This document shows positions 760 through 19,842 of a stretch of 20,000 nt of DNA, piece after piece (position 1 is the first letter of the stretch; every line of letters begins with the position of its first letter). The DNA comes from an uncultured virus (IMG/VR IMGVR_UViG_3300045836_000189). Lineage: Duplodnaviria > Heunggongvirae > Uroviricota > Caudoviricetes. A program made the translations under genes and the position numbers. The DNA lies in the IMG/VR virus record IMGVR_UViG_3300045836_000189, positions 116,296 to 136,295 of that record, one strand, 5' to 3'. Below the pieces are notes generated by a model that worked only from the letters and a program-made list of their open reading frames with translations, did no database searches and was not told where the DNA came from.

Positions 760-1062
760 TTAGTCCTCATCATAGAGGATAGTGAACAACATTTTTTCTT
801 CTAACTTCTCCAGCCCCGCATCCAGTTCACCGAAGATGCTGTCCAGGCTGGACATTGACTCATTATTGGCCCATTCCACACGGTATCCCTTTCCCAGTTT
901 TTCGTTATACTTCTTGTCCCAGTCATCTATGTGATAAGTGTATTTGGTTCCGGCAGTACCTACTTTTCCGTAGGTTGCCACGAACTGATTTCCACTAATC
1001 TCTTCCATTTCATAGAACTTATGACTGGAACCGTCCTTAAAAACGAGTCTTGCTTTTTTCAT
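760..1062 (-). CDS. WGR-domain protein with shared C-terminal helix
   Basis: SSHKFYEM...TYGKVGTAG...KKYNEKLGKGY is a typical WGR signature (YGK variant); tail FGELDAGLEKLEEKM. Confidence 0.85.
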   Translation of the reverse strand: MKKARLVFKDGSSHKFYEMEEISGNQFVATYGKVGTAGTKYTYHIDDWDKKYNEKLGKGYRVEWANNESMSSLDSIFGELDAGLEKLEEKMLFTILYDED

Positions 1063-1063
1063 T

Positions 1064-1552
1064 TTACTGCTTGTATATAACTACTGTGACATCACAGTAC
1101 GGAGCCAGTTCCTTCTGGATGATCTCTTTGATCCGATTCCAATCCCCACCGGCAAGTCCGGCACCGATCTGTGGTAGCCCTACACGCTTTTGAAAATAGC
1201 GTGAGGCCAGCTTACGCATAACCAGGGTCAGTGCCTCATAGTCAATATCTCCCTTGGGATTGCCATAACCAAACTGGGTGTAGGCATTCACTACATCCAG
1301 GAAGGATGTCTTGGGAGAGCTTCGGGCATCCAGTACAAACCGCATGGCTTCTATCTGTCCTATCTTATTTACGTCCCCTTTGTACTCCTTGGCTTCCATC
1401 GGATAGGTATCCGTAGCAAAGGCAGCTACCATCTGGGTAGCCAGTCCTTTTTTCTGTGTACAGAAACAGTTGCAGCCATGGGCTATGGCATCAAAGTGAC
1501 CTTCCCTGGCCAGGGTTATGAGGTTTCCCTCTACTTCATTGTATGTCCCCAT
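1064..1552 (-). CDS. Macrodomain (ADP-ribose binding/hydrolase, T4 Tk.4-like)
   Basis: EGNLI, IAHGCNCF..GLA, VVNAYTQ and PQIGAGLAGGDWNRIKEII are macrodomain motifs. Confidence 0.9.
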   Translation of the reverse strand: MGTYNEVEGNLITLAREGHFDAIAHGCNCFCTQKKGLATQMVAAFATDTYPMEAKEYKGDVNKIGQIEAMRFVLDARSSPKTSFLDVVNAYTQFGYGNPKGDIDYEALTLVMRKLASRYFQKRVGLPQIGAGLAGGDWNRIKEIIQKELAPYCDVTVVIYKQ

Positions 1553-1595
1553 AGTGTAAGTTGTTCCGGTTGACCACCACCGGAAGGAGTTAAGG

Positions 1596-2651
1596 TTATA
1601 CCATGAACCGATAAGGAGCTGTGAATTTCAGGACGATCTTATGGAATGGAGGATCGTCTGTCTGACTACCATTGTACTCAATAAGCAGGTCTTTCTCTTC
1701 CTGAGTAACTTTACATTCAGCAAGCCTTACCTGGCAGCGGTAATTATTTACTTCCGGTTCTATATCATTATCTGCATCAAAGCCCTCTGGTAATTTTGGA
1801 TACTTACTACGGTTAAATAAGAACATTTCGGTATCCCCGGATATTTCTACAAAGGATTGCCACTCCCACTTGCCGTCTACCAGCTCATTTACTTCGTATC
1901 TCCGATTGGTGCTCTCCAGGTTCAGGTGGGCAGCACAGGCTATAGCATCTTCATTAAAAAGATTCATCTCTTTAATAAGATTTACCAGCAGGTCAAACGT
2001 CTGCATGTTGGTTTTCCGGAAAAATTTAAAGATGGAAGCCTTGTGTGCTTTGTTTACCAGCAAGTCATCTATTACTTCATTCATAGTGGCTTCATCCAGA
2101 TCCGTGTAATCCTTACGGTATTTAACCCTGTTTAGCCTGTTCATGAGGAAGTTATTGATCTTCATCTCATTAACAGTCAGCAGGAATATAAACCGGGTAG
2201 GATAGTTCCCATCCATCAAAAGAAGTAAATCATTACTCTTATCACCATTGGGATAGATCTTTTCAAATTCATCAATGAAGATGATAGCATCCGGATACTG
2301 GGTCAGGTAGTCAATAAAGTCACTACCAAAGAATGGTTCAGTAATCATGATTACCGGCTTACCGGAATCAATACAGAACTTCTGGGCAGTAATGGTTTTA
2401 CCAGAGCCTTTTAGTCCGGAAAGAATGATACCCATGTTTTTCTCCGAGTTGTGCTCGTATGATTTCATCCACCGCTCAATAATGCTTTGGTCTCCGTAAA
2501 TTTTTTTAGGGAGTCTGAAATTCTCTTTCTGCACCAGGTAGTAACCATCCCTGGGATCAAACTTCAGCATGTAATTACCCGGAGGCAGGGAATCATGAGT
2601 GTTGGATACGTTTGCTGTCTTAAAGACACCATTTGATTCAATGATTTTCAT
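1596..2651 (-). CDS. AAA+ ATPase (phage, single AAA module)
   Basis: Walker A GLKGSGKT, Walker B IIFIDEFEK, LLLMDG and NRLNR motifs. Start placed at ATG 2651 (MKIIESN) rather than GTG 2708, which lies inside a hairpin. Confidence 0.85.
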   Translation of the reverse strand: MKIIESNGVFKTANVSNTHDSLPPGNYMLKFDPRDGYYLVQKENFRLPKKIYGDQSIIERWMKSYEHNSEKNMGIILSGLKGSGKTITAQKFCIDSGKPVIMITEPFFGSDFIDYLTQYPDAIIFIDEFEKIYPNGDKSNDLLLLMDGNYPTRFIFLLTVNEMKINNFLMNRLNRVKYRKDYTDLDEATMNEVIDDLLVNKAHKASIFKFFRKTNMQTFDLLVNLIKEMNLFNEDAIACAAHLNLESTNRRYEVNELVDGKWEWQSFVEISGDTEMFLFNRSKYPKLPEGFDADNDIEPEVNNYRCQVRLAECKVTQEEKDLLIEYNGSQTDDPPFHKIVLKFTAPYRFMV

Positions 2652-2747
2652 ATAATTATCTGTACGGATTAATGGAGTGACAAAACAATAGCCGGTAGCG
2701 GTCACCACCGGCTATAAATAGTTTAAATGATGGTTAGTGTTACAGGC

Positions 2748-3536
2748 TTAGAGGCTTACCTCTTTAGTCTGTTTTTTCTCTGCAGGTGCAGTGATAAAGT
2801 GGGCATACCGGGTAAAGAAATCCTTTACCTTCTGCTCATCTATGCATTCTGCAGCAATAGTTTGTTTCTGCTTTCCGATGTAACGGAGCATGACATTGTG
2901 GTCATAGGCTTTGCCCAAAGATCTTACTGTGTTCACAAACTCCTGGATGAAGTACTTTTGACAAGTCCTTCCCATCTCCGGCATGAGTTTCATCACTTCT
3001 GATGTCTGGGAAACCAATAGTTCAGCAGGGCCCTCATTCACAACGGTAAAGGTTCCGGTCTTCAGGGCTGAGTTGATACGGTGACCGAAGAAAAAGCCTG
3101 TATTGCTTAAGATACCTGCTGCTATGGTGATCTCTATATCATACTTGTTATAGATAACCATCAGCTTGCGGTAGTCCGGCTTAATACTGCTCCAGGCATG
3201 GATGTAATCATCCAGCTTCCAGGATTTGGAGCTTGAGTTTAAAAGAGCAATGGTCTTCACCAGGTCCTCATAATTACTGATGCCATGGATGGTCACATAG
3301 GGAATATCTATACCCAGTGCCATACAAGCTTCATACTTGTGCTGGCCTTCTATGATATAGGTTTCCTTCTTTCCGGTAATAAAGCTCAGTTCTGCTACAA
3401 TGATTGCCTGAAGCATCCCTATTTCAGAGATGGATTTTTTCAGCTTGGCAATGTGTGCAGGGGCTGTTTCACGGTTGATCCCAACTAACTTCTTGAAGCC
3501 CTTCTTGGAATCCTTTTTGAGAATTTGGATGTTCAT
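2748..3536 (-). CDS. ParB N-terminal-like domain protein
   Basis: INR...HIAKLKKSISEIGMLQAIIV...YIIEGQHKYEAC resembles the ParB/Srx 'IIDGQHR' family; followed by 'WKLDDYI'. Confidence 0.7.
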   Translation of the reverse strand: MNIQILKKDSKKGFKKLVGINRETAPAHIAKLKKSISEIGMLQAIIVAELSFITGKKETYIIEGQHKYEACMALGIDIPYVTIHGISNYEDLVKTIALLNSSSKSWKLDDYIHAWSSIKPDYRKLMVIYNKYDIEITIAAGILSNTGFFFGHRINSALKTGTFTVVNEGPAELLVSQTSEVMKLMPEMGRTCQKYFIQEFVNTVRSLGKAYDHNVMLRYIGKQKQTIAAECIDEQKVKDFFTRYAHFITAPAEKKQTKEVSL

Positions 3537-3544
3537 AGTTTATA

Positions 3545-3850
3545 CTAATTGTTACTTGTTTGCTTGTCTTTAAGCATTTGGCTGAGATCCTCCCCATATT
3601 CCTTGTTAAGTGCCTTGTGAATAGCCTCTTCCATGCTAATACAGTATTCAGTGGCATCAATACAGGCCAGGAACAGGGCTACTATACCTAAATCCATGGT
3701 GATGGCCGCTACCTTGTCACAGAGTCTTTCTATGAAATGAGTAGCAGTCCAGTGCCAGCCATAAATAATTTGAAACAAGATTGTTTCAGCAATGCTGAAG
3801 TAAAGGCCCCATTTGGTAAGCCATACTCCTATTTTCAGTTTGGTCTTCAT
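3545..3850 (-). CDS. Hypothetical membrane protein
   Basis: Two hydrophobic segments; ATGA overlap with the upstream gene. Confidence 0.7.
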   Translation of the reverse strand: MKTKLKIGVWLTKWGLYFSIAETILFQIIYGWHWTATHFIERLCDKVAAITMDLGIVALFLACIDATEYCISMEEAIHKALNKEYGEDLSQMLKDKQTSNN

Positions 3851-4377
3851 GATACGGTTACGTGATTAAGTTCTTTCCACCGGGCAACGACAGACCTGCC
3901 AAGGTCCGTGTCCCACAGGACTGAATAATGAATATTGTCTTTTGCAGTATCCTGGTCTCTCTTACAGCACGCTTCCCTTCCCTGTTCCGGTTTAAGACCC
4001 AGGTCATGCAGACCACAGAGATTATCCTCTGTAAGCATGATACATTTTCCACTTGGATTCAGGGGAGCGTACCTGCCTCCGGTATGTTCGGACTTGTATT
4101 TCTTCTCCTCACCGGTTGCCCTGGCAATCATGGAGAGCATCATACTGAACATATCTGCCAGTTCACTATCTCCAAGACCCATATCTTCCGGGTAAATAGC
4201 CATGGTCAGCACATGTATATCATGCTTACCTTCTCCAATACCGTGATAGACATCACGCTGGATGAGTCCTGCATATCCGGCATCCAGAAGCTTTGAAAAT
4301 TCTTCCGGAGTACCCCAGCAGGGACGTTTATAACACATAGCTACTCCCTTAGAGCAGCCCGTACAGGTAACTCCCAT
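3847..4377 (-). CDS. Cys-rich metal-binding protein (YkgJ/CxxCxxCC-like)
   Basis: CTGC...C...PC at the N-terminus; CIML-x4-LCGLH...KP...CC at the C-terminus. Confidence 0.6.
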   Translation of the reverse strand: MGVTCTGCSKGVAMCYKRPCWGTPEEFSKLLDAGYAGLIQRDVYHGIGEGKHDIHVLTMAIYPEDMGLGDSELADMFSMMLSMIARATGEEKKYKSEHTGGRYAPLNPSGKCIMLTEDNLCGLHDLGLKPEQGREACCKRDQDTAKDNIHYSVLWDTDLGRSVVARWKELNHVTVS

Positions 4378-4421
4378 TACATTTAATAAGTTTAACGGTA
4401 AGACTTACAAACCTGTGAGGT

Positions 4422-4706: not shown

Positions 4707-5333
4707 CTATTGATCACCCATGTCTGGATCTTTTCCAAAAAGTTTTCCCAGCAGCTCATTGAGGTTGCCTTTAACACCGGACTTCTTCATACTCTGAATT
4801 TCAGAATCAATCTGGTCCATTTTGTCTTTGGGGCAAACCTTTTCTATGAACTTATCCCAGGTAAAATTGCTGTCCTTGATAGCTTTGATGGCCATTTGGA
4901 TAGGAGTATACCGTGATTTGGTAAACATATCCTCAATAACCATCCTCAGTCCTCTGACGAATTTATCCTGAGCATCCTCTTCCTTCTTGTCTCCCTCCGG
5001 CTTCTTTTCGGATTTTTTGTTCTCCATTGCCTCAAGCTCTTCATAGAGCCCCAGCACTTCTGAACGGACATCCCTGAAGATCAATAGACAATAGGTCTGC
5101 TCTTCCGGGGTTCTCAGATGAGAAAAGGCCAGGTCAAGAGTGCCTGTTGCAGTGGTCAGCTCATCCGGAGCCTCATCCGGGCTGTCATACAGGTCTTTAA
5201 CCAGCATCCTGGCGGACAATGCCTCAAACAGGATGGCATTGCTCACAAAGTTTCTCTGATAGAAAGAGAGACCCAGGGAATCTTCCCAGTTCTCTGCTTT
5301 GTGGTTCAATTTGGGTAGGATTAGCTTTTGCAT
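4707..5333 (-). CDS. Hypothetical protein
   Basis: 208-aa ORF with A-rich start, collinear with neighbours. Confidence 0.75.
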   Translation of the reverse strand: MQKLILPKLNHKAENWEDSLGLSFYQRNFVSNAILFEALSARMLVKDLYDSPDEAPDELTTATGTLDLAFSHLRTPEEQTYCLLIFRDVRSEVLGLYEELEAMENKKSEKKPEGDKKEEDAQDKFVRGLRMVIEDMFTKSRYTPIQMAIKAIKDSNFTWDKFIEKVCPKDKMDQIDSEIQSMKKSGVKGNLNELLGKLFGKDPDMGDQ

Positions 5334-5424: not shown

Positions 5425-5844
5425 TTATTTGGACAGCTCTTTCACCAGCCTGTCAATGATTTGCTCAGAGGTTTCACCGGCCTCATTCTGGAAATGCTCT
5501 ACAAGAATCCGGTCTTTCAGATCCTCTACGTCTACATTTTTTCCAGCAGCCTGGAAATTCGGAGTATAATATCCTTGTTCATCTCTGCTGTATCCAAATC
5601 CGGTTACCTGAACATCTTTAGTGGTGAATGCTTTTACAAAAGCTGCTTTGGTATCTTGTACTTTTTGAGCGGCAGCCTTAATTACAGCTTTTTCATCATC
5701 CACAGCTTTCTTATAAGCTTTATACTCTTTTGAAGACTGGTAGCTTTTCTTTACAGCTTCCACATTTGCTCTCTGAGCTTCTTCAATTCTGTTTTTTACT
5801 TGGTTAGCTAAGGCTTTAGCTACGGGTACGGTTAACTTTTTCAT
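5425..5844 (-). CDS. Hypothetical helical protein
   Basis: 139-aa K/A-rich ORF; start context TAAAAAAACCAAAATG. Confidence 0.75.
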   Translation of the reverse strand: MKKLTVPVAKALANQVKNRIEEAQRANVEAVKKSYQSSKEYKAYKKAVDDEKAVIKAAAQKVQDTKAAFVKAFTTKDVQVTGFGYSRDEQGYYTPNFQAAGKNVDVEDLKDRILVEHFQNEAGETSEQIIDRLVKELSK

Positions 5845-5878: not shown

Positions 5879-6220
5879 TTATTTCAGCTGTTCAGCTAAT
5901 TGGTCAAGAGCTTTGTCAATTTCCTCTATATAGTTAGTAGCATAAGAGAGGGCCTGAAACCTCTTACGGCAATAGTATCCGGCACCAAGTCCCAGGTTCT
6001 CATCATTGGTGATATTATCCCAATGGACGTATACAATGGTTCCTTTTTTCTTTTTTCCAAATGTATTTTGGTCTACATAGTTCGGACCTATGGCTGTGAT
6101 GGTGCCCTCCGTAACGTTGGCATAATGACCAGTGAAATATCCGGGAGCTTTCCCCCAGTCTGGTCCTTTTGTTACCCGGTCTCCAATACTTGCTTCCGGG
6201 GCATAAACAGGCTTGTTCAT
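5879..6220 (-). CDS. MIB/HERC2-like (SH3-fold) protein with shared C-terminal helix
   Basis: IGDRVTKGPDW...GTIT...VYVHWDN; tail IEEIDKALDQLAEQLK. Confidence 0.7.
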   Translation of the reverse strand: MNKPVYAPEASIGDRVTKGPDWGKAPGYFTGHYANVTEGTITAIGPNYVDQNTFGKKKKGTIVYVHWDNITNDENLGLGAGYYCRKRFQALSYATNYIEEIDKALDQLAEQLK

Positions 6221-6516
6221 GATTTTTGTAGTTTTTCTTCCAGCTTATCAAGGGCTTCTGTGAGTTCATCCAGGGACGGAGGTTCATCAAGGTAATACAG
6301 GTCATAATAACCAGCATGTCCCACTCTGTAATTCCAAATAACCTTGGAGCCTTCCCACTGTACATCTGCCCAAAAGCCTGTACTAATTGATTCGCTCACA
6401 AGGGTGCCTGTTCCTGTACCTCCTCCATGTATATCCTGGTCACCCCATTCCCAGTCTCTACCCCGTTTTACACGAGCTCCTTTCCTGTAGTTCTCAGGAG
6501 TTACCGGTATCTTCAT
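6217..6516 (-). CDS. MIB/HERC2 domain protein with shared C-terminal helix
   Basis: GARVKRGRDWEWGDQDIHGGGTGTGT...WADVQWEG...NYRVGHAGYYDL closely follows the recalled MIB/HERC2 consensus; tail LDELTEALDKLEEKL. Start placed at ATG 6516, after AAGGAG. Confidence 0.85.
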   Translation of the reverse strand: MKIPVTPENYRKGARVKRGRDWEWGDQDIHGGGTGTGTLVSESISTGFWADVQWEGSKVIWNYRVGHAGYYDLYYLDEPPSLDELTEALDKLEEKLQKS

Positions 6517-6811
6517 CACTGCTCCTTTCCAGCTTGGAAGCAAGCCTGTTCAGAGCAGCTTCAATATCCTTAAACTCTACTTCGGGGTAGATCAGAGGAA
6601 TCTTTCCAGACTTTATCTGGTACCCTGGCCATATCCCTTTGGCAAGCTGTGGAAATCCTTTCCATTTTACCTGGATGATTTCTGAGTACTTGTGGATCTC
6701 TACAATCCTGCCCTTTTTTACTCCTTTAAACCGGGAATCGTGAGGTCCCCAGTCCGGACCGGGAGCCACTATGTCTCCAATTTTGGCAGTATTAACGTTA
6801 ACTGGTTTCAT
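6494..6811 (-). CDS. MIB/HERC2-like protein with shared C-terminal helix
   Basis: IGDIVAPGPDW...GRIVEI...IQVKW; tail FKDIEAALNRLASKL. Confidence 0.7.
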   Translation of the reverse strand: MKPVNVNTAKIGDIVAPGPDWGPHDSRFKGVKKGRIVEIHKYSEIIQVKWKGFPQLAKGIWPGYQIKSGKIPLIYPEVEFKDIEAALNRLASKLERSSDEDTGNS

Positions 6812-7112
6812 GATTTATCCTTTCTTGCTTTTCAATGAGTTTCTCCACTTCCTGGAATAAGGTTGTTAAATCCTCTGTAGTTGAATCATAGACTGACAGT
6901 TCGTATTTTCCCGCCGCTCCAATTCGGTAAGAATAGTTGAATCCTCCTGGTTTCCACCTCACATCAGCATACCATCCGGCAATGTCATCACATACTTCGG
7001 TAATAATACCATACTGACTAACACCAACGTGATGATTCTCCGAATGATTCCAATCAGGGCCTTTGCAGACTTTCATGCCTACAAAAGCATTTTCATGCGT
7101 CACCTTTTCCAT
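6798..7112 (-). CDS. MIB/HERC2-like protein
   Basis: VGMKVCKGPDW...GIITEV...ADVRW...YSYRIGAAGKYEL; tail LTTLFQEVEKLIEK. Confidence 0.8.
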   Translation of the reverse strand: MEKVTHENAFVGMKVCKGPDWNHSENHHVGVSQYGIITEVCDDIAGWYADVRWKPGGFNYSYRIGAAGKYELSVYDSTTEDLTTLFQEVEKLIEKQERINHETS

Positions 7113-7714
7113 AGAACTTTACTCATCAGATACAGTGTTTCTATAAATATCCTGGGGATACTCAGCAGGAACTTCTTGATCTTCCTGGGAAGACGTAGCA
7201 GCCAGGCTATCAGGTTACCATGCTTTTTACCCAGCATGATGTCTGCCTGGATCTGGTCCAGTCCATCCATGATCTGTTCAATGGTCTCCTGTTTCTTCTC
7301 CACTGTAGATTCAGATACATCTTCTGCTGGAAGGGTAGCACCTGTGTAAACAGGTTTTGAGAAAGAGGAAGATTTACCATGTGCAGCCAGGAAGTTATCT
7401 TTGTATTCCTGCCATTGATCCACGGTTGGGAATCCTTTTCCAGGAGAAAGTTCCTGTTCATAAACATGCCTTAAATCATGCCGTGAACTGAGTCCTGTTC
7501 TATATTTAGCTGACTTTCCATTATCCCATTCTACTTCACAGTACAAGCCGTTCTTAAACACAATAACAATAGTCCCCATGGTTCCGGGAAGCATCTCATA
7601 TATAGTGAAGGGAAAGTCAAAAGTGGTATCCCTGAACCAATCGGGGCCACCCGCCATTACTCTTAGTCCGACTCTTACTTCATCATAGCGTACAGGATCT
7701 CCTGGTTTTAACAT
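7100..7714 (-). CDS. MIB/HERC2-like protein with C-terminal extension
   Basis: VGLRVMAGGPDW...GTIV...CEVEWDNGKSAKYRTG...HDL; helix IEQIMDGLDQIQADI, then a basic amphipathic tail. Confidence 0.75.
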   Translation of the reverse strand: MLKPGDPVRYDEVRVGLRVMAGGPDWFRDTTFDFPFTIYEMLPGTMGTIVIVFKNGLYCEVEWDNGKSAKYRTGLSSRHDLRHVYEQELSPGKGFPTVDQWQEYKDNFLAAHGKSSSFSKPVYTGATLPAEDVSESTVEKKQETIEQIMDGLDQIQADIMLGKKHGNLIAWLLRLPRKIKKFLLSIPRIFIETLYLMSKVLWKR

Positions 7715-8040
7715 TGGTTTCCTCCTTTCTGCTCTGCCACTTTAAGCAGGAGCAGATCCAGATTAAAATAGATTTGTTCAATAACAGGGAGCTGCTTCAC
7801 CAGATTCCTGGGAAGGTCTCTAATGGATACCTTGAAGTACTTATTCTTCCTGTTATTCTTACAGCCCCAGGCATACTTGATTTCTTCAAACCTGAGTTTT
7901 TTGTTGTGTGTGATCTCTTTAACTGTCAGCACCTGTCCCGGCTTTACCCAGGACTGCTCACAGTCATTTAGTATTTTGATTTTGCAGCCTATAAGGGACT
8001 GGCTGATTTCAGGATGGATAAGATCTTCATAAGTAGCCAT
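7708..8040 (-). CDS. Hypothetical beta-rich protein (paralog of 8043..8351)
   Basis: LIGCKIKILN...GQVLTV...EI...WGCKNN...YFKV; tail IEQIYFNLDLLLLKV. Confidence 0.7.
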   Translation of the reverse strand: MATYEDLIHPEISQSLIGCKIKILNDCEQSWVKPGQVLTVKEITHNKKLRFEEIKYAWGCKNNRKNKYFKVSIRDLPRNLVKQLPVIEQIYFNLDLLLLKVAEQKGGNQC

Positions 8041-8042
8041 AA

Positions 8043-8351
8043 TTAACTCAGTTTATCTTCTAGCCGCTCCAGATGAAGTAGTATATCATCCATCAGCGGT
8101 GAGAGTGCTTTATCAATATGTTTTAACTCATAGATCATCTCCTGACCTTCCAGTACCTGGAATAATTTTCTACCGGAGTTATTGGCACATGACCAGTAAC
8201 GGCCTCCTATTTCCTTGATACCCAGGTTCTTTGACCGGTATCCGGAAACAGTATAGATCTGTCCATTCTTCAGGCGTTCAAACCCATTGTTGTTCAGGAT
8301 CAGGATCTGTTTGCCTATTAACTCCCTGCAGGCATCCGGGAAATAGCTCAT
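8043..8351 (-). CDS. Hypothetical beta-rich protein (paralog of 7708..8040)
   Basis: LIGKQILILN...GQIYTV...EI...WSCANN...LFQV; tail MDDILLHLERLEDKLS. Start likely ATG 8351. Confidence 0.7.
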   Translation of the reverse strand: MSYFPDACRELIGKQILILNNNGFERLKNGQIYTVSGYRSKNLGIKEIGGRYWSCANNSGRKLFQVLEGQEMIYELKHIDKALSPLMDDILLHLERLEDKLS

Positions 8352-8461
8352 GATGATTGAAATTGAATACAGTACTAAATGGTAAAGCATGACAGACCAA
8401 ACCTGGAGAGGAGTGGATATTACTACCCCTGTGTCCCCATTAAGCCTGCCATGCTTATGTC

Positions 8462-8821
8462 CTACTTCTTTGCTTTCAAAGCTTCCAGTTTCCGGTTCAG
8501 CAGATACTTGGCCACTGGTTCATAAGCACGTAAAAGCACATAGTGAACCATCCCCTGGATAGCACACATTATAAAGGCCGTAAACAAGAAGTTGTACAGC
8601 CAGTAGTGTGATACTACCACCACAGGGAGATCGCTCGTCAGAAGCAGGATAAACACGCACCAGTGGCCAAAGCACCAGGGACAGTGAATCAGGTCTTCTA
8701 TCTTTTGATTGAGAGGGCTGATCCACTCCCGGAATGGTTTGAAGATACCGGTGGATGTGACGGTGAAGGAGATGGAAGCACAGCATAGTGCTCCCATGAC
8801 CAGGAATAGGAACTCTTTCAT
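8462..8821 (-). CDS. DUF1360-like membrane protein
   Basis: IFKPFREW...LIHCPWCFGHW motif with flanking transmembrane segments. Confidence 0.65.
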   Translation of the reverse strand: MKEFLFLVMGALCCASISFTVTSTGIFKPFREWISPLNQKIEDLIHCPWCFGHWCVFILLLTSDLPVVVVSHYWLYNFLFTAFIMCAIQGMVHYVLLRAYEPVAKYLLNRKLEALKAKK

Positions 8822-8822
8822 G

Positions 8823-9125
8823 TTATATTACCTCATCAGCTTCTTCAAGGCCATCTTCCGAAATCCGGTCCCCATCCTGCAGATCTGAGTCTTCAGGGAC
8901 TTCCCTTAAGATCTCAAAGTCTGATCCTCCACATCCACAACCTGAGTACACCACCAGCCTTACTTTGCGGGTCTTTGGCATATAAGCTCCCAGAATGTCC
9001 TCTATACTCATCTCTTCTGCCTTTTTGATCACAGGAGCTTTTTCCTGTTCCTTGTGGAACTCTTCTCTCAGTTGGGCCAGGTTGTCCTTCTCCTGACCGG
9101 CTTTACGGTTTTTAAGCTTTTGCAT
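8823..9125 (-). CDS. Hypothetical protein with GCGCG motif
   Basis: Overlaps the ATPase stop; YSGCGCGGS and an acidic C-terminus. Confidence 0.7.
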   Translation of the reverse strand: MQKLKNRKAGQEKDNLAQLREEFHKEQEKAPVIKKAEEMSIEDILGAYMPKTRKVRLVVYSGCGCGGSDFEILREVPEDSDLQDGDRISEDGLEEADEVI

Positions 9126-10281
9126 AACTTGAGTTTATTAATTTGATTGATTCTTCCAGGTCTGCTGCAGTAACCCCCTTAGGAGTTTTCTTGGTAGTAG
9201 TCATCCTGGTCAGGGCTTTGCGTACAGCACCTTTGGCAATGGCTTCCACCATAGCTCCCGATACTTTACTCTTACAGGGAAGACTAAATAACATATCAGC
9301 TCCTTTGATGGCCAGGTCTTCTACCTTGTCATGGCATTTTACCTTCTTAAGGTGGATCTCAAAGATCTCCTTGGTATCCGGGTGATCCGGACGGTTGATG
9401 CCAATCTTCAAGTCTATCCTTCCTTCCCGGACAATAGCCTCATCCAGTGCATTAGGGAGATTAGTGGCCAGGATGAAGATGGGATTGTGCTCTTTTTCCA
9501 GTCCGTCCATTTCTGAAAGGAACGTAGGCACAATGGTCATCTCCACGTCTGATGATTTACCGCTGCCTCTCTGACGGAGCAGGGCTTCTGCTTCATCCAT
9601 GAATACAACTGCACGCTGGCCGGTCTTTTTACAGTACTGGCGGGTAGCATGGAACATGTGGGCTACTTTCTGCTCTGCCTCACCTACGAACTTACTCAGC
9701 ATCTCAGCTCCTTTTATGTAAACAAAGGCTGCGGGATCCACTTTTGTGGAACCAAGGATCGTAGAGGCAATGGCTTTACCGATCAGGGTCTTGCCACATC
9801 CCGGAGGACCGTAGAGTACCAGGCCGGGAAAATCTCCCAGACCCATCTCTTTTGCCAGCTCCTGGTGTTTCAGGGGCAGCTCAATGGCTTCACGGATGTT
9901 GCTTAACTGTGATTTAAGTCCACCGATCTCATTCCAGTCAATCAGGTTGAAATGAGGAATGTCAGTTACTTTCTCCAGCTCTTTGGGAACCACGGCAATG
10001 ATGGCGGATCCAATACAGATCACCTCTGTTCCCGGCTCAAGAATTTGGGTAATAGGGTCTCCGAAGATAGGCTCTTCATTCAGGAACATAACCGTTCCGT
10101 TTACCCGGTAATACTGGGCATTGTTATGAACAAAAGGGCCAGCTACAATGGTGTGTACTTCTTTTTTCTCACCAAGGAACTGCTCCAGCATCTGCTCATA
10201 TTTATCAACCTGCTCTCTGAGGGCTGATAATTCGTCTGTTGGGGCTACGGGAGCCTCAAATGTTGCTTCTTCCTGAAACAT
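9112..10281 (-). CDS. ARC/Mpa-like proteasome-type AAA+ ATPase
   Basis: WNEIGGL; Walker A GPPGCGKT; pore loop KGAEMLSKFVGE; Walker B VVFMDE; RGSGKSSDVEMTIVPTFLSEMDG; SRH ATN...LDEAIVREGRID; SGAMV; N-terminal coiled coil LSALREQVDK. Start placed at ATG 10281. Confidence 0.85.
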   Translation of the reverse strand: MFQEEATFEAPVAPTDELSALREQVDKYEQMLEQFLGEKKEVHTIVAGPFVHNNAQYYRVNGTVMFLNEEPIFGDPITQILEPGTEVICIGSAIIAVVPKELEKVTDIPHFNLIDWNEIGGLKSQLSNIREAIELPLKHQELAKEMGLGDFPGLVLYGPPGCGKTLIGKAIASTILGSTKVDPAAFVYIKGAEMLSKFVGEAEQKVAHMFHATRQYCKKTGQRAVVFMDEAEALLRQRGSGKSSDVEMTIVPTFLSEMDGLEKEHNPIFILATNLPNALDEAIVREGRIDLKIGINRPDHPDTKEIFEIHLKKVKCHDKVEDLAIKGADMLFSLPCKSKVSGAMVEAIAKGAVRKALTRMTTTKKTPKGVTAADLEESIKLINSSYAKA

Positions 10282-11247: not shown

Positions 11248-12195
11248 TTATTTTTTGTTGTCCTGGTTTACAGTAACCTCAGACTTGGCAGCTTCAACAG
11301 CTTTAGCCAATTGGCCAGGGAAAGCTTTGATCTGCTCTTTTAGTTCAGCAATCAGTGCTTCCTGGGTAGAGATGGTACCTTTCAGGTAATCCACGTCTTT
11401 TTCCAACAGGGCTATCTTAGCATCTTTCTCTGCTTTCAGAGAAGAGATCTTAGAGCCTTCTGAAGCAAACACTTCAGATTTGGCGGCTTTCACAGCAGCT
11501 TCGATCTGAGCCTGTACGTCTTTAGCCTCAGTAGCTTTGAAGTCTTTAAGCGTAGTGTACTCTTTAGCGTCCACCAGCACTTTTTCATAAATGGAGGCAA
11601 TCTTTTCAGCGGCCTTCAGGTTCTCATCCCTTAAAGCAATACTGTTGTCATAACGGGTCTGCTCCATTTTACGGCTGTGCTCCAAAGCAAGTTTGGCAAT
11701 TTCCTCACCAGACTTCACACGGGTTTCTTCTACACGGGCATTAGAGGCCGCAATCTTCTCTTCATTTTCAGCAATGATCTGATCCAGGCGGGCATTGAGG
11801 GCATCAATTTTCTCCTGGTTCTCAATCTCTGCTTTCTTCAGACCAAAGCTCAGGTCATCAGCAGCTACCTGGGCACGTTTTTCCAGGTCAGCAAATAATT
11901 TTTCCAGGTTAAGGGCTTCAGTACCTTCTTCAGATACAAAATCCAGCTCCATTTTACGCTTAGCCAGGTCAAACTGGTTTTGTAACTCCTGGAGAGCTTT
12001 GGTATGTTCCTGTTCACGTTTAACAGCATTGTCTTTTACGGTCTGGGCCTGACGAGCAAGGTCCAATAAGGCACGCTCAATCTGAGAAGAGCTTAGTGGG
12101 CCGTTCTGATACGCAGCCAGACGTAATTGTAGTTCTGCAGCTAATTCTACTAATTGTGATTTGTTTTTGCTGTTTAATTGTGCTTCTGTAAACAT
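11248..12195 (-). CDS. Long coiled-coil protein, possible Rho-N/HeH-like N-terminus
   Basis: Heptad-rich A/E/K/L composition throughout; N-terminus QLNSKNKSQLVELAAEL. Confidence 0.8.
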   Translation of the reverse strand: MFTEAQLNSKNKSQLVELAAELQLRLAAYQNGPLSSSQIERALLDLARQAQTVKDNAVKREQEHTKALQELQNQFDLAKRKMELDFVSEEGTEALNLEKLFADLEKRAQVAADDLSFGLKKAEIENQEKIDALNARLDQIIAENEEKIAASNARVEETRVKSGEEIAKLALEHSRKMEQTRYDNSIALRDENLKAAEKIASIYEKVLVDAKEYTTLKDFKATEAKDVQAQIEAAVKAAKSEVFASEGSKISSLKAEKDAKIALLEKDVDYLKGTISTQEALIAELKEQIKAFPGQLAKAVEAAKSEVTVNQDNKK

Positions 12196-12694: not shown

Positions 12695-12975
12695 AACCAT
12701 TTGGGTGGTTTGGGCTGTCTATACTCTATCCACTCTTTAATGAACATAAAGGGCATCATGATGATTACGCCTGCAATCAATACCCAGGAAAAAGCGGATA
12801 TGACTAAGTTTTCCTTAACATCCTCCCAGGAGTAGAAAGAACCTCTCTCATCTCTGCTTTTTGCACGTACAAAAAAGTACACAATAGCAACTCCCAACAG
12901 GTAGATAAGGACATAGAACCACCAGTGGTGATGTGTCACTGGTGGTGTCTGGCTAATTACTTTCACAAGCTTCAT
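12691..12975 (-). CDS. Two-TM membrane protein
   Basis: Two hydrophobic stretches. Confidence 0.75.
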   Translation of the reverse strand: MKLVKVISQTPPVTHHHWWFYVLIYLLGVAIVYFFVRAKSRDERGSFYSWEDVKENLVISAFSWVLIAGVIIMMPFMFIKEWIEYRQPKPPKWL

Positions 12976-12977
12976 GA

Positions 12978-13283
12978 TTATTTTCCAGCGTAATATTGTT
13001 CACGGGTAATAGTAGTAGTGGTATATCCTTCCAGGTGTTTTTGCACCATGTCTTCAGGACCCCACCAGCATTCACAGCCCCATACATCCTCACCACTGTC
13101 CAGGGTGATTTTAGGGTTCTTGATCCCGTTCTCATGAAGCATTCCCATCATGGGATTACGCTCATCTGCAGGAGGAACCTCTTCTCCCTGGTAGATGCCA
13201 TAGCCAAACAAAGTGGCTGTTTTGTCTTTCTGGTTCGTGCTAACTATTGCACCAGCACGGTCACCAACATTTAATCTTGCCAT
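12978..13283 (-). CDS. Hypothetical protein
   Basis: VGDRAGAI...NPKITLDSGEDVWGCECWWGP; ATG 13283 sits just after the upstream stop. Confidence 0.7.
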   Translation of the reverse strand: MARLNVGDRAGAIVSTNQKDKTATLFGYGIYQGEEVPPADERNPMMGMLHENGIKNPKITLDSGEDVWGCECWWGPEDMVQKHLEGYTTTTITREQYYAGK

Positions 13284-13287
13284 TTCT

Positions 13288-13596
13288 TTAATCAGTTGTT
13301 TCTGTGACTTTTCCCAATAGAGCATCTATGGGATTTCTATAGTACCTGTGGTACCTGATTACGTTAAACTCCGGGTTATGCTCCGGATCTTCCTTATAGG
13401 CAGGGTTATCTATCCATCTCCATCCGCTGTCCAGTGGAAATCCAAAGATTCCCTCCTCGTCCCATATACACTGCACATCAGAGATCCTGAATCTCCATAG
13501 GAAGACCAGCAGGGAAACAATCAGAATCATTGCTCCGAAAAGGAGCTGGGCAATGACCACTATGACCATTACCACCAGTCTCCAGATCCATTTCAT
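13288..13596 (-). CDS. Membrane-anchored hypothetical protein
   Basis: Long hydrophobic N-terminus; TAATG coupling. Confidence 0.7.
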   Translation of the reverse strand: MKWIWRLVVMVIVVIAQLLFGAMILIVSLLVFLWRFRISDVQCIWDEEGIFGFPLDSGWRWIDNPAYKEDPEHNPEFNVIRYHRYYRNPIDALLGKVTETTD

Positions 13597-13925
13597 TAGT
13601 ACCCCCGCATCTGTACAAGGAACTGCCTCAGTTCAGGGACGTTATCCATGGTAGTGGCATCAAAGTTTGTATACCGGTCCCGGACCACATTCTGAATGAT
13701 TTGTTTGTCCTGAGGATCCTTTGCTTTTTCGTATTGCTCTTTATAAGAGGCCAGGTCCTGGATCTTTCCATCCACGTAACTCTGGGTGTGTTCAAACACG
13801 TTACGTTTAACGTTCTCCTGCCTGGGGGCCCAGAAAGCAAATGATCCGAGTTCAATGGCTGAAACAATCCATGTAAATGCTATCAGGGTCACTATGACTC
13901 CAATAGCTTTAAAAGCGGTCTTCAT
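13596..13925 (-). CDS. Membrane-anchored helical protein (partner of adjacent lipoprotein)
   Basis: N-terminal TM segment; ENVKRNVFEHTQSYVDGK; TAATG coupling. Confidence 0.75.
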   Translation of the reverse strand: MKTAFKAIGVIVTLIAFTWIVSAIELGSFAFWAPRQENVKRNVFEHTQSYVDGKIQDLASYKEQYEKAKDPQDKQIIQNVVRDRYTNFDATTMDNVPELRQFLVQMRGY

Positions 13926-14443
13926 TATATGTTAAGCTTGAATGGTGATACGATAACACGCGGCTCTATATAAACCGGCTTACGCTGGTTAGTTTCAGGG
14001 TCAATCATTATTAACCAGGTTCCTTCTGCATCATTGGGCATAAACAGACCATTGGGCTCCGATTGAGGTAGTGATCCAAAGCTCTCCTGGTATCCTCCTG
14101 GATAAACCTGCTTCTGAGGATTGGAGAACTGTGCAGCGTAAGGAATACCGTATCCAATGCACTTACCAAAGAAGATCAGCTTCCCGGTCATCTCTGAATA
14201 CAGGTAAGCATAGCAAACCAGATTGGGATTATCCCTTAACTCATAGAGATCAGCAATCTGCTTTTTCTCTGTAAAGTTGTGGATGGCAGGCATACCTACC
14301 TGGCGGGTAGCTTCCTGCTGAAGTTGTTCCTGCCGGTTCTGGTCTATACGGTCCGCATTCGGCTGGGCAGGTACATTGGTACAAGAGAATAGCCCTGTGA
14401 TAGCTACACAGGTTAACAGGCTGAGAATAGCTCTTTTTTTCAT
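13925..14443 (-). CDS. Phage lipoprotein
   Basis: Signal peptide MKKRAILSLLTCVAITGLFS-C lipobox; IGYGIPYAAQFSNP, QSEPNGLF, EGTW, YIEP. Confidence 0.8.
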   Translation of the reverse strand: MKKRAILSLLTCVAITGLFSCTNVPAQPNADRIDQNRQEQLQQEATRQVGMPAIHNFTEKKQIADLYELRDNPNLVCYAYLYSEMTGKLIFFGKCIGYGIPYAAQFSNPQKQVYPGGYQESFGSLPQSEPNGLFMPNDAEGTWLIMIDPETNQRKPVYIEPRVIVSPFKLNI

Positions 14444-14520
14444 GTTTTGAATTGATGTATAAAAGTGTGAATAATAGGTTACAGTAGTTGATTATCAGGG
14501 GTAGAGTTACAGACATGTTT

Positions 14521-14551
14521 AAAAAAACCGGGAAGGATTGCTCCCGCCCGG
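14521..14551 (-). terminator. Intrinsic terminator
   Basis: CCGGGCGGGA-GCAA-TCCTTCCCGG followed by T7 on the minus strand. Confidence 0.8.
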
Positions 14552-14735
14552 CCCATCAACATAAACACATAAAACAACTCTTTATATCTTCCTAATGGTA
14601 TAGCCAAACTTGCTGAGCAAGCTATTGACATTTTCCAATGTAGGCAGGGACATGCTCTGTAGAGCAGAACAGATCCCACGGATAAGTACGGATTCTTTCA
14701 CCTTCTGATCCTTGTCAGAATGGGTGATAGTGTGA

Positions 14736-16070: not shown

Positions 16071-16072
16071 GG

Positions 16073-16363
16073 TTATACCAGCTCTAAATCATCAGTAAGT
16101 TTTTCATTCAGGCCAGTAGCCTCACGAACTGTCTGTCCAAGGTCTGATTGTTCTAAATCAATACACTTCAGGAATACTTTATCCTGAGCTTCCCTGAATT
16201 CCTCAAAGGATTTGTTACCGTCCCAATGGTTCTGGAACTCCAGTAACTCGACACGGGACAGGTCCGTGAACTTTTTGATCAGGGACTGGAGGTTTTGTGC
16301 TCTTTCTTCTTCTGAAGAGAAAGAATTGGTAGCAAGGGCTTGTTTTAAAGCTGCTAAGTTCAT
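16073..16363 (-). CDS. Hypothetical protein
   Basis: 96-aa ORF with A-rich start. Confidence 0.7.
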   Translation of the reverse strand: MNLAALKQALATNSFSSEEERAQNLQSLIKKFTDLSRVELLEFQNHWDGNKSFEEFREAQDKVFLKCIDLEQSDLGQTVREATGLNEKLTDDLELV

Positions 16364-16397
16364 AGTGTTTTGAATGAGTTAATGAGTTTGTGGATTG

Positions 16398-16470
16398 TGG
16401 GGAGAGAAGGATTCGAACCAACGACCTTCCGGGTATAAGCCGGATGCTCTATCCACTGAGCTATCTCCCC
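16398..16470 (-). tRNA. tRNA-Ile(TAT)
   Basis: Reverse complement: GGGGAGA TA GCTC AGTGGATA GAGC A TCCGG CT TAT AC CCGGA AGGTC GTTGG TTCGAAT CCTTC TCTCCCC A. Full cloverleaf with A73; CCA not encoded (CAA follows). Confidence 0.9.
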
Positions 16471-16477
16471 ATATAAT

Positions 16478-16503
16478 AAGAGCTAGAAGTTAATCCGGCT
16501 CTT
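16478..16503 (-). other. Hairpin immediately upstream of tRNA-Ile
   Basis: AAGAGCCGGA-TTAACT-TCTAGCTCTT imperfect inverted repeat. Confidence 0.4.
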
Positions 16504-16514
16504 AAATAAGTTAA

Positions 16515-16874
16515 TTATTCAGCTGAGTTGAATTCAGCAAGAATACCGGAGAAGTAAGCTATTGAGTCCTCTGTGGCTGCTTTTACAGCAATAGCATTCT
16601 CCAGGTTTTCCTGGGCACGCACAATACCTTGTGCATAGGCTTTATTATCACTAAACAAGTTAGTGGGATACTTAGCTGCAGCCAATGCTTCTTCAGCTGA
16701 TTCCACTGCGTTCTCGTCATCAACGAGTTTAGCTTTCAGAGCGGCTACCTGACCTTCCAGGGCAGATACAGCTTTACGGGCAATTTTACCGGCTAATGCT
16801 TCAGTGTCATCACCTTTTAAACGGTTAAGAATTCCAGCTACTAAAATGGTCTTTTTTGATGTGTTTTTTGACAT
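16515..16874 (-). CDS. Hypothetical coiled-coil protein
   Basis: Ala-rich helical 119-aa ORF; start context AAAAACCATG. Confidence 0.75.
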   Translation of the reverse strand: MSKNTSKKTILVAGILNRLKGDDTEALAGKIARKAVSALEGQVAALKAKLVDDENAVESAEEALAAAKYPTNLFSDNKAYAQGIVRAQENLENAIAVKAATEDSIAYFSGILAEFNSAE

Positions 16875-16879
16875 GGTTT

Positions 16880-18472
16880 TTACGGATTAAGGATTATTAT
16901 TTTTGTTACTTGTTTCTTTTTGGTTAGTACTACGGGACTTTGATGACTAACCTGTGGCTGTCCCAGGGCTGCAGGTGTTTTTACGGGTAATGTGACAGGA
17001 GTGTTATCGGGCTGAGGGGATGGATTAACAGGGTAACAGAATGAATCCAATATTCTGATGTTTGCTGATTCATATATACCCAGATCTGCAGGCGTGATTT
17101 CTACATTGGTGTTTTCATCAAACCATTTTCTGTCATTGCCTAAGAAGGATAGAGTCAGGTTGTCGGAAAATAGTGCATAAGAATCAGTATACATAACCCA
17201 TCTTTCATTTAATCCCCACTTATGACCTAATTCAAACAACCTTTCCTGCACTCTTCTGGAGAGATCAGGGTTATTTCCTATCCAGATCTTGAACTTTTGT
17301 GGTAGGTTAATAACCGGCTTCTCTTCCTGGATGATTTCAGCCCATTTGTTATTATAGGCATAGTAAACACAGAGTTCATCTCCCTCAACAGGAACGAAAA
17401 CATCCTCATATCCATACCGTGGATCCCCTGCTACTGTTCCAGATTTCCCGGATAATGCACTCTTAATTTTAGTACCAACCGGATACCTACTAAGGGCTTC
17501 TGCTAAGAGATCGTCTTCTGGAGTTGATTTAGATTCCTGTGATTTCCAGAACTCTTCAAATCCTTCTGCTGCTATACGGACATCTGCTGAAGTACGATCA
17601 AGTTTGATTGCAGGTTTTCCTTTTACATAATCAATGTTAAGAATTCTCCGATCTCTATAAAAACCAGACATTGCAGTCCATTTATCAAATACACCGTTAG
17701 TGAAGTTTCCTTCTTTACTACTCCAATCATTGATTACTTTCTCAGGAACAGTTTTACCAACCAGGTGTTGATATTTGCTGAGATCTGGTTGCTGCTTAGG
17801 ATTCCACTCATCATAGAGGATTTGAGCTTTGTCAGTAGTATTACCCCCTCTAAGCTTTTCATACACTTCATCAAAAGGACAGGTAGAAGATGCCCCAATA
17901 TAGTTCCTAAGAGCACTTAAACTCAGGTTCATGGCCTTGGTTTCCCTAAGCCATTTATCCAGTATTGACTCTTGAGGTATATCATACTCTTCAAACTCTG
18001 ATTCCAGCATAGAGTACGCACCACCAGTTCTTGATCTTACTGACATTTTATAGCAACCTCTTTCAGGAACGTAATCGTAGTACTCTAAGATTTTGCCTTT
18101 ATACCCCCCTTGCTCATTACCTCCATGATAATAAGAAATAGTTATACCATTTGCATGAGTACAGTCTTCTCTGTTCTTATAAGTGACCGTATCACCTACT
18201 TTAAATCTTGGCTCCGGTTTTGTTTTTTTGGGTTCTGTAATAATTTCAGCCCAATTATTGTAAGTATAGATCCGGGCTTTTTTCCTACCTGCAGGATTGG
18301 GAGCTACGTCAATGTACATATGAACACTTGTCCACGCATCTGGTGCTTCCATCAGGCTTTTAAACGGATCATCTGCCACTATAAATTCTTTACCTTTTAC
18401 AAGGTCTTTGAAACGGGCACCAGGGACAAATCCTTTTTCTAAGGCCCTGGTCATAAATTCACTATTTCTCAT
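16880..18472 (-). CDS. Mosaic multi-domain phage protein with internal repeat
   Basis: Two copies of a module ending in W-A-E-I-I (RALEKGFVPGARF...YNNWAEII; EALSRYPVGTKI...YNNKWAEII), an FKVGDTV barrel start and a Pro-rich tail; AAGGAGG upstream. Confidence 0.8.
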   Translation of the reverse strand: MRNSEFMTRALEKGFVPGARFKDLVKGKEFIVADDPFKSLMEAPDAWTSVHMYIDVAPNPAGRKKARIYTYNNWAEIITEPKKTKPEPRFKVGDTVTYKNREDCTHANGITISYYHGGNEQGGYKGKILEYYDYVPERGCYKMSVRSRTGGAYSMLESEFEEYDIPQESILDKWLRETKAMNLSLSALRNYIGASSTCPFDEVYEKLRGGNTTDKAQILYDEWNPKQQPDLSKYQHLVGKTVPEKVINDWSSKEGNFTNGVFDKWTAMSGFYRDRRILNIDYVKGKPAIKLDRTSADVRIAAEGFEEFWKSQESKSTPEDDLLAEALSRYPVGTKIKSALSGKSGTVAGDPRYGYEDVFVPVEGDELCVYYAYNNKWAEIIQEEKPVINLPQKFKIWIGNNPDLSRRVQERLFELGHKWGLNERWVMYTDSYALFSDNLTLSFLGNDRKWFDENTNVEITPADLGIYESANIRILDSFCYPVNPSPQPDNTPVTLPVKTPAALGQPQVSHQSPVVLTKKKQVTKIIILNP

Positions 18473-18483
18473 GTTCCTCCTTT

Positions 18484-18663
18484 CTATGGACTCATTTGAT
18501 ACTCATCAAAATCCATGACCAGAAAATAGGCCAGGATCAGTGTTAAAACAATAGCAAGCCACATTTCAGGCTGACCTCTTAAGATCAGGATGACGGGCAA
18601 TAGGGTAAGGATGGCTATAATACGGAGTATAATAATCACCATAAGTGTTCTTTTACCCCTCAT
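18484..18663 (-). CDS. 59-aa two-TM membrane protein
   Basis: Not in ORF track. MRGKRTLMVIIILRIIAILTLLPVILILRGQPEMWLAIVLTLILAYFLVMDFDEYQMSP; ATGA-coupled to the upstream gene. Confidence 0.7.
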   Translation of the reverse strand: MRGKRTLMVIIILRIIAILTLLPVILILRGQPEMWLAIVLTLILAYFLVMDFDEYQMSP

Positions 18664-18866
18664 AACCTATCCCTTTCTTGAAATTCATCCCGGAAGCTAT
18701 CCAGGCTGGTAGCTATCCACAAAAGCATAATCAGGATCAGGTACAGAAAAGTAGCTGTAATAATATCCCCGGCAGACAGCTTGATCTGTAAAAACAGGGG
18801 AACAAGAAGTGCCATGGATATATAAAAGATCGTGCAGTAGCAAAATAACCTATTAAACGTTGCCAT
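18660..18866 (-). CDS. Two-TM membrane protein
   Basis: Two hydrophobic segments; TAATG coupling. Confidence 0.7.
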   Translation of the reverse strand: MATFNRLFCYCTIFYISMALLVPLFLQIKLSAGDIITATFLYLILIMLLWIATSLDSFRDEFQERDRL

Positions 18867-19096
18867 TATTTGTTAGTGGTTATGGATTTCCCACACTTCG
18901 TGCAGTACATCTCCTGGTAAGCGTAAGTAAGTGATTTGTATTGGATGATATGTTTTCCTCCTGCAGGGCAGTTCTCCTTGAGAAATGTCTTTTCCTTGGA
19001 AGGAGCAAGGTCTCCATTGAGCCAGGCAGCAAATATGAACACAAATGCTGTTGCTACAAGAGATCCGACAATGATATAGAAGGCTAACATAATCAT
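18866..19096 (-). CDS. Membrane-anchored protein with small Zn-finger-like tail
   Basis: N-terminal TM segment; C-x5-H...CTKCG. Confidence 0.65.
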   Translation of the reverse strand: MIMLAFYIIVGSLVATAFVFIFAAWLNGDLAPSKEKTFLKENCPAGGKHIIQYKSLTYAYQEMYCTKCGKSITTNK

Positions 19097-19157
19097 AATG
19101 CCAGGATATGTCCAAGGGTTAAGAGTAACCCCAGGATGTATACGATAAAGAATGTTT

Positions 19158-19499
19158 TCATGATTGTTTCAGTTTTTCAGAGAGCTGGTCTAATGCAGTC
19201 TCTATTTTGTCAATGATATGTGGATTTGTTAGTTGACTGATGTTAACGGGTCTGTTTACTTGGTCATAAGCCTCTATTTCATAATCTTCAGCATATCTCC
19301 AGGAATAGGATTTCCCTGCAGCACGGTAATTCAAAGGATCAAAACAGATTCTTGTGTTACCGTTTGTGTCATCTCCTCTTAAGTCTATTTCTGGCCGTAA
19401 CCAGTCACAGTCCTCCCGTTGCTTAAAGACAAAGTCTTTTTTCCAGGCATCAAACTCTGTGTTTTCCAATAAGACAATATAATCCCCCTGCTTAAACAT
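19158..19499 (-). CDS. Hypothetical protein with shared C-terminal helix
   Basis: FKQGDYIV...WRYAEDYEIEAY...PVNIS; tail IDKIETALDQLSEKLKQS. Confidence 0.8.
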   Translation of the reverse strand: MFKQGDYIVLLENTEFDAWKKDFVFKQREDCDWLRPEIDLRGDDTNGNTRICFDPLNYRAAGKSYSWRYAEDYEIEAYDQVNRPVNISQLTNPHIIDKIETALDQLSEKLKQS

Positions 19500-19842
19500 C
19501 TTTCCCCCCTTTTAACTTATCTTCCAGTTGATTTAAGGCTTCATCCAGTTTTTGTATGGTTGGTGTATAGTCTACCTCAGAGATGTTAATAGGACCCTCA
19601 GCTTTATTGTAAGCATCTATCTCCTCCTGGGTAGCAGGACGCAGATCTACTAAAGAAAAATTCATACCCCACCTATTATGTTCCAGGATGGCAACCTTAC
19701 GGTGAACATTTCCAGATGGTAGAGCATCATCTTCTTCATTATAAGTGCACATTGCCACTGTACCTATGAGAGATTGATATTTAAAATATCTTGAGGTACA
19801 TGATTTTATTACTACAATATCTTGATTTCTCACTGTTTCCAT
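19492..19842 (-). CDS. Hypothetical protein with shared C-terminal helix
   Basis: NQDIVVI...LRPATQEEIDAY...PINIS; tail IQKLDEALNQLEDKLK. Confidence 0.8.
   Translation of the reverse strand: METVRNQDIVVIKSCTSRYFKYQSLIGTVAMCTYNEEDDALPSGNVHRKVAILEHNRWGMNFSLVDLRPATQEEIDAYNKAEGPINISEVDYTPTIQKLDEALNQLEDKLKGGKDV

Follow-up and report, generated by a model that had tools for sequence, protein, structure and literature searches.

The stretch analyzed here (the window) comprises 20,000 nucleotides of the uncultured virus IMGVR_UViG_3300045836_000189 and forms the final 20 kb of its 136,295-bp contig (this genome, G000). It holds ten small genes whose products share a 15-residue helical motif, which we call tail A, behind more variable N-terminal domains, here called heads. 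By its marker proteins this is a crAss-like phage, because there are Pfam matches to Crass_capsid for the capsid protein and to CrAss_Ring families for two tail-ring proteins, all scored on the copies in a sibling strain, G001. A third genome, G024 (134,893 bp), is a distant clade-mate of lower GC content (~29%, against ~44% here) with a capsid protein 82% identical to that of this genome; it was reached through a search with a neighboring ATPase.

The original prediction listed ten such tails, and all ten do lie in minus-strand open reading frames (ORFs) where it had placed them. The first, at 760..1062 (tail codons 790-834), follows a WGR domain (Pfam PF05406, E = 7e-7, 29.7 bits against a cut-off of 22), and its G024 ortholog, 41% identical, is tailed too and scores 31.7 bits for the same family. 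The largest array opens with a MIB/HERC2-type head, assigned by sequence linkage, at 5879..6220 (tail 5885-5929), which is replaced in the sibling strain (36% identity). It continues with a MIB/HERC2 head recognized by Pfam at 6217..6519 (tail 6229-6273; PF06701, E = 1e-13, 51.4 bits against 33.5; sibling allele 59% identical), another assigned by sequence linkage at 6494..6811 (tail 6530-6574), another recognized by Pfam at 6798..7112 with a degenerate tail (6825-6869; PF06701, E = 9e-11, 41.9 bits against 33.5), and, at 7100..7714, a MIB/HERC2-type head that falls below the PF06701 cut-off and is followed by a linker, the tail (7238-7282), and a 45-residue end. Two paralogs with beta-rich heads complete the array, at 7708..8040 (weak tail, 7738-7782) and at 8043..8390 (tail 8049-8093), the latter gene probably starting at 8351 instead. 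The last two carriers are at 19158..19499 (tail 19170-19214), with a head of no known family that has relatives in G024, and at 19492..19842 (tail 19513-19557), with a head akin to it and a sibling allele of 59% identity.

The predicted model of the 6217 protein (predicted local distance difference test, pLDDT, 75.9) shows a beta-barrel joined by a linker to a helix at residues 83-99; its best Foldseek matches are HECTD1 structures (2DK3, E = 7e-4, and 3DKM), with Mind bomb domains also near. This model supports the assignment of the head as an SH3-like barrel of the MIB/HERC2 fold. That the ten tails sit on different N-terminal domains, as had been claimed, is an overstatement, since five of the ten heads (5879, 6217, 6494, 6798, and 7100) belong to one MIB/HERC2 sequence group and the 7708 and 8043 proteins are paralogs. 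Counted over the 18 carriers of the whole genome, the heads fall into nine sequence groups, with six in the MIB/HERC2 group (five in the window and one outside). A loose SH3/KOW-type start, h-x-x-G-x-x-h, is present in 11 of the 18, a count made without a background control, and most heads probably share a single SH3-like superfold. WGR is a different fold and is the sole head named by PHROGs and the Atlas. The heads that are neither MIB/HERC2 nor WGR gave no Pfam match above cut-off, and an Atlas model of the 19158 protein reached template modeling (TM) scores of 0.42-0.46 to helicase subdomains, which is under the bar.

Two of these proteins have further features of their own. The neighbor of the WGR-tail gene (the two spanning 760-1552) is Macro-like (phrog_335; Pfam Macro, E = 0.09), a pairing that by analogy recalls ADP-ribose signaling. 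The 45-residue end of the 7100 protein (7100-7234) is basic and hydrophobic and is possibly a membrane anchor or membrane-binding helix; in G024, one carrier (L175:16840-17205) terminates in a short Lys/Trp-rich stretch.

In leave-one-out profile scoring, seven of the ten tails reach 14.9-26.5 bits. The 6798, 7100, and 7708 copies, correctly described beforehand as the weakest, score -1.5, 6.4, and 4.2 bits, and the 7100 copy does not qualify as a C-terminal tail, the motif being internal and 45 residues before the end. Outside the window, the ten-tail profile finds five matches of at least 18 bits, all C-terminal, in ORFs of 92-110 residues. The shuffled-protein control that the original prediction had proposed yields a mean of 0.01 such matches (200 shuffles), and profiles in which the heptad was preserved and all remaining columns were permuted yield 0.8, with none of 200 reaching five. 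The polar flanking residues of the tail are conserved beyond the bare heptad pattern. A 17-tail profile extends the matches to 20 ORFs of at least 12 bits, namely 18 small tailed proteins and two large proteins with internal matches. The initial figure of about ten carriers was therefore real but incomplete: there are 18 tagged ORFs in this genome, 19 in G001, and 21 in G024. Clustering of C-termini without any seed recovers the tail as the single dense group among the 171 genes of this genome, and the same clustering of G002, G003, G027, and G066 gave no comparably dense group. A tyrosine integrase on the opposite strand (G000 109182-110297), whose presence suggests a temperate phage, scores 10.6 bits with the ten-tail profile in its last helix, probably by chance.

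The tail A consensus, I-[ED]-x-[IL]-x-x-[AND]-L-D-x-L-x-x-K, describes two heptads of an amphipathic helix with hydrophobic residues at positions 1, 4, 8, 11, and 15 and a negative net charge (means of -2.1 and -1.6). L8, D9, L11, and K14 are common to the tails of this genome and of G024, at ~44% and ~29% GC, and position 7 is mainly Ala here and Asn or Asp in G024; the residues that follow the motif form extensions that vary between carriers. No DNA repeat family covers the tail copies, and the pairwise identity of tail DNA averages 48%, with a maximum of 69%; selection therefore acts, on this sequence evidence, on the tail peptide. A DNA repeat or cassette element was rejected on the same grounds, there being no nucleotide-level repeat at the copies and only ~48% identity. 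Synonymous identity among the tails (318 against 283 expected, P = 0.05) makes gene conversion borderline, and a promoter scan returned chance level.

Scanned with a profile from this genome alone, G024 gave 22 matches of at least 10 bits, 19 of which end within 12 residues of the C-terminus (P = 4e-17); the C-terminal enrichment that had been sought in related phages is thus present. Its 21 tail A carriers include WGR and MIB/HERC2 heads and an alpha/beta head, and its near-copies G063 and G065 have the same tails, with one head replaced and one gene extra. Homologs of the MIB/HERC2-group proteins mostly align to the head and end before the tail; among 150 other MIB/HERC2-like proteins, only P0153 (22.8 bits) is clearly tailed, and P0121 (7.3 bits) is a borderline case. 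The MIB/HERC2-group profile aligns to the 8043 protein within the tail only. These comparisons show tail A to be a portable, conserved helix on exchangeable heads. The idea of a portable constant tail on variable heads accordingly stands, with WGR and MIB/HERC2 both tailed in two distant phages and the same head types also found untailed or with another tail, although the variety of heads had been put too high. Related heads also occur in tandem, without tail A, in a 530-residue mosaic protein (16880..18472, minus strand) with head matches at residues 86-102, 189-224, 320-381, and 405-430 (E = 1.5e-5 to 3.5e-3); it is ~60% identical to a 463-residue sibling allele, and the C-terminal end is identical.

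Among 23 capsid relatives, the array is present in G001 only, and another genome shows one weak match; eight of those without tails have a completeness of 90% or more. A quick capsid tree has a branch, with 97% support in the Shimodaira-Hasegawa approximate likelihood ratio test (SH-aLRT), that separates the tail-bearing phages, together with five fragments without the region, from the rest. DNA-pattern scans of viral contigs returned 11 matches, the first 80 of more than 120, and 42 matches, respectively; among the matches listed, tail arrays occur only in G001, G024, and the near-copies, and the other C-terminal matches are lone helices of similar appearance, and many of these have Arg or Phe at positions 7-8. 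A metagenome scan with three MIB/HERC2-tail proteins found six loci. The array occurs in runs from soil and rhizosphere metagenomes, two of which may be its source, and no RNA dataset is among the runs listed; the 6217 protein had no match in cultured phages. Bacteroidetes are given as the hosts of Crassvirales in the available part of PMC10136315. Our prophage search for a host returned no matches for a MoxR query and, for a capsid query, 17 loci in mixed-taxa bins with no usable host; four genomes and one fragment from these capsid loci had no tail match. The literature yielded no description of such shared tails, supplements and most subscription papers lying outside its coverage.

A different C-terminal motif, tail B, unrelated to tail A, is shared by 21-23 further small proteins of G024 that have several types of head (L175:257-3368 and 5942-6253; L180:18493-19229; L181:7550-9705 and 12867-14735); this motif is absent from G000-G003. 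Its motif is x-[DE]-L-x-x-[AI]-R-x-[IW]-[IL]-Y-x-D, with invariant Leu and Tyr and 0-4 residues past the 12-mer (21 seeds), and most copies end in Tyr-x-Asp/Glu. SH3-type starts are found with tail A or tail B, and related heads occur with tail B. Because tail B is short and terminal, with invariant Leu and Tyr, it reads as a receptor ligand, and by analogy tail A may be read in the same way. In G064, two small clusters of neighboring genes (L319:5278-6647; L318:639-1367) have products with similar C-termini, the four in L319 being full-length paralogs.

Comparison of strains bears on how heads and tails evolve. G001 is 97-98% identical to the window over most of its length, and one of its 19 tailed ORFs is new. 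In the 18-gene tailed set used for this comparison, which includes the degenerate g115448 and omits g3029, four genes fall below 70% identity to their sibling counterparts (36-62%), compared with none of the 63 other small minus-strand genes that have a counterpart (p = 0.002). In contigs covering the array, 5914-6232 and 6276-6433 are replaced by different sequence of equal length, and 308 letters are inserted at 8365, corresponding to the extra tailed sibling gene just upstream of 8043. The islands of DNA kept at the swapped loci, 5881-5914 and 6232-6276, are tail codons, so that tail-coding DNA is retained while heads are replaced between strains, just as a constant tail with a variable head would have it. 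Contigs X3 and X4 give identical figures and are G001-like, so that this is one comparison and not three.

We tentatively favor, at somewhat less than even confidence, the hypothesis that tail A is a docking helix for one conserved receptor and carries fast-evolving recognition heads. A two-heptad amphipathic helix would be joined by a short linker to small recognition heads, of which most would be SH3-like barrels and others WGR or alpha/beta domains. In the infected cell, every carrier would bind the same conserved receptor, encoded by phage or host, with the helix sitting in a groove of that receptor. Each head would bring its own target to the receptor, most likely host defense or regulatory proteins or nucleic acid. 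An arms race would then drive head change, and the conserved tail codons could serve as a short stretch of homology, or crossover anchor, for head swaps.

Several observations weigh against this hypothesis. Ten of 73 other small genes lack a sibling counterpart, some of them for technical reasons, and when all ten are counted as diverged the excess of diverged tailed genes disappears (p = 0.46); moreover, only two independent strain types are compared at the swapped loci. The tail-bearing phages are, by the capsid tree, one clade, and co-occurrence of the tail with any gene is therefore a single event. The candidate receptor and the head targets are all putative. Finally, the a/d pattern of tail A fits a short coiled coil equally well, and the tail profile matched the PDB with weak, generic coiled-coil hits (best E = 0.015).

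An alternative is that tail A is a self-associating mini coiled coil, forming trimers or tetramers that would make the heads multivalent and allow mixed hetero-oligomers, a noncovalent version of the tandem-head proteins in which the 7100 protein could tie bundles to the membrane. The spacing of the hydrophobic positions suits such a bundle, the weak profile matches include GCN4 variants, a trimeric adhesin stalk, and an H-NS-like dimerization helix, the same heads are also concatenated in one protein, and variable extensions past the motif are tolerated. Yet two heptads are short for a stable bundle, the tails are net negative, and tail B, which follows the same genomic logic, is short and terminal and has an invariant Tyr. 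We regard self-association as rather unlikely on this balance, while taking it seriously.

It is distinctly unlikely, in our view, that the tail is simply the inherited end of an old paralog family, serving to stabilize the protein or to set how fast it is turned over, with no specific partner in common. A single SH3-like gene may be the ancestor of most heads (the loose start motif, counted without a background control, in 11 of 18), some tails have decayed, and a generic heptad end is also found on 8 of 70 other small genes; against this, both lineages have the tail on WGR and G024 also has it on an alpha/beta head, the tail persists beyond head similarity, and homologous heads terminate without it. 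A virion packaging signal, by which diverse counter-defense proteins would be loaded into the capsid and injected, follows the logic of T-even internal proteins (PMC3012670, in part) and fits the presence of cargo proteins in crassvirus virions (PMC10172136, in part), but it is the most doubtful of these explanations, as none of 20 scored scaffold, capsid, portal, and cargo candidates has the motif (best 9.4 bits), the capsid protein shows 79-82% identity whether or not the relative bears tails, and the cargo named in the available part of PMC10172136 consists of five large proteins.

If tail A docks onto a receptor, genes near the arrays are candidates to encode it. Two genes from the largest array, at 9112..10281 (minus strand), lies an Mpa/ARC-like AAA+ ATPase with a coiled coil, one beta domain, and an AAA domain. 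Its best NCBIfam match is TIGR03689 at 231 bits, below the cut-off of 505, and the top Foldseek matches of its model are Mpa (7PX9/7PXD). The ATPase is present in both tail-bearing lineages and not in the eight complete tail-less relatives, but G024 was found through this ATPase, and ~20 other genes show the same pattern of co-occurrence. Tail clusters lie near five ATPase genes with P = 0.003-0.04 in this genome, a post hoc test that was not replicated in G024 (P = 0.09-0.31). Of 40 records that contain this ATPase, only one also has a tail array; in tail-less phages the ATPase gene is accompanied by its own two neighbors; and 42 of 51 family members have an N-terminal helix of negative net charge, like the tail. 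Complex predictions with two copies of ATPase residues 8-108, two of the WGR tail, and the 6217 tail as partner scored 0.00 in both runs; the job was unlike the calibration and is evidence neither way. The ATPase is thus a weak candidate for the tail partner, because its charge has the same sign as that of the tag and it is usually found without tags.

The likelier dedicated partner of the ATPase, judging from gene order, is a small Cys-Gly-Cys-Gly protein (8823..9125, minus strand), which follows it in tail-less phages too. The third gene of this module (8462..8821, minus strand), adjoining the largest tail array, encodes a DUF1360-like membrane protein (Pfam PF07098, E = 0.004, below cut-off); the whole module (8462-10281) is also found in L125, L126, and L128. 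Other candidates are a protein without known family at 4707..5333 (minus strand), whose ortholog directly follows the tail array in G001 and G024; two MoxR AAA+ genes next to tail clusters, each with a conserved partner gene (G000:C1:93338-96691 and 112760-115223) that we label vWA from reading the sequence, without a family match; and two further ATPases (window 1596-2708; G000 508-1335). The MoxR pairs and the two further ATPases are common to G024 and were not found in G002/G003 except for one weak AAA match. All of these, with the 4707 protein, are possible clade-specific candidates, and a conserved host protein is equally possible. Between the 4707 gene and the tail array, the sibling has a deletion that removes a 139-residue gene (5425-5844). 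A 315-residue protein with a long coiled coil (11248-12195), of no known family, is 99% identical in the sibling.

A bolder joint reading, which we consider unlikely, would make this a programmable adaptor system without covalent tagging. Two orthogonal tails would sort dozens of swappable heads, and each tail class would deliver host targets to a dedicated AAA+ machine, such as the ARC-like unfoldase, a MoxR pair, or an unfoldase-protease of the host, to be unfolded or destroyed; by analogy, the carriers would be a bacterial-virus counterpart of ubiquitin-ligase substrate receptors. Whichever machinery is involved, the small shared-tail proteins account for about one-tenth of the genes of this phage and one-fifth of those of G024. 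Should each tail prove to have one receptor, one pull-down experiment would assign a function to dozens of unknown genes, would show how phages keep changing host-binding modules wired to one mechanism, and would supply short orthogonal docking peptides. Tail A is clade-specific, and such tails offer a homology-free route to candidate counter-defense genes.

Four known systems invite comparison. MoxR AAA+/vWA pairs of jumbo phages have been proposed as assembly chaperones (PMC7824862, in part), and the two MoxR ATPases here, each with a conserved partner gene beside tail clusters, resemble them. The available part of that paper does not connect such pairs with small tagged proteins, and in G064 a MoxR2-like pair is present and tail A is absent. 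The accessible portion of PMC12373910 yielded nothing relevant. In the Pup system, the N-terminal coiled coil of the AAA+ unfoldase Mpa reads the Pup helix (PMC8142254, in part), which recalls the short helix here and the coiled coil-beta domain-AAA ATPase near the largest array. The Pup system was nevertheless rejected: no carrier among the ten matched the Pup family in Pfam to E = 0.1, and their C-terminal ends vary; no Pup ligase, deamidase, or 20S subunit was found among the 34 + 23 + 91 proteins scanned with Pfam, which represent part of the genome's genes; none of the 51 ATPase family members has the HbYX motif; and the ATPase helix and the tag are both acidic.

The heads themselves resemble the MIB/HERC2 (CPH) domain PF06701, as in HECTD1 (2DK3/3DKM) and Mind bomb (4XI6/4XI7), with 6 of the 18 heads in this group, and one PDB match of the 6217 model is, by its title, a Mind bomb-Jagged1 peptide complex. 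The phage proteins differ in that they stand alone, have no ligase domains, and carry the tail outside the domain.

Closest in working, by analogy, would be the T-even internal proteins (IPI* and relatives). Their targeting peptide is N-terminal and is cleaved by the prohead protease, whereas tail A is a C-terminal helix on SH3-like heads, with the motif in none of the 20 scored structural proteins. The T-even proteins are diverse small defense proteins whose sole common part is the targeting sequence, according to the available part of PMC3012670, and in both systems highly diverse small accessory proteins are united by a short peptide.

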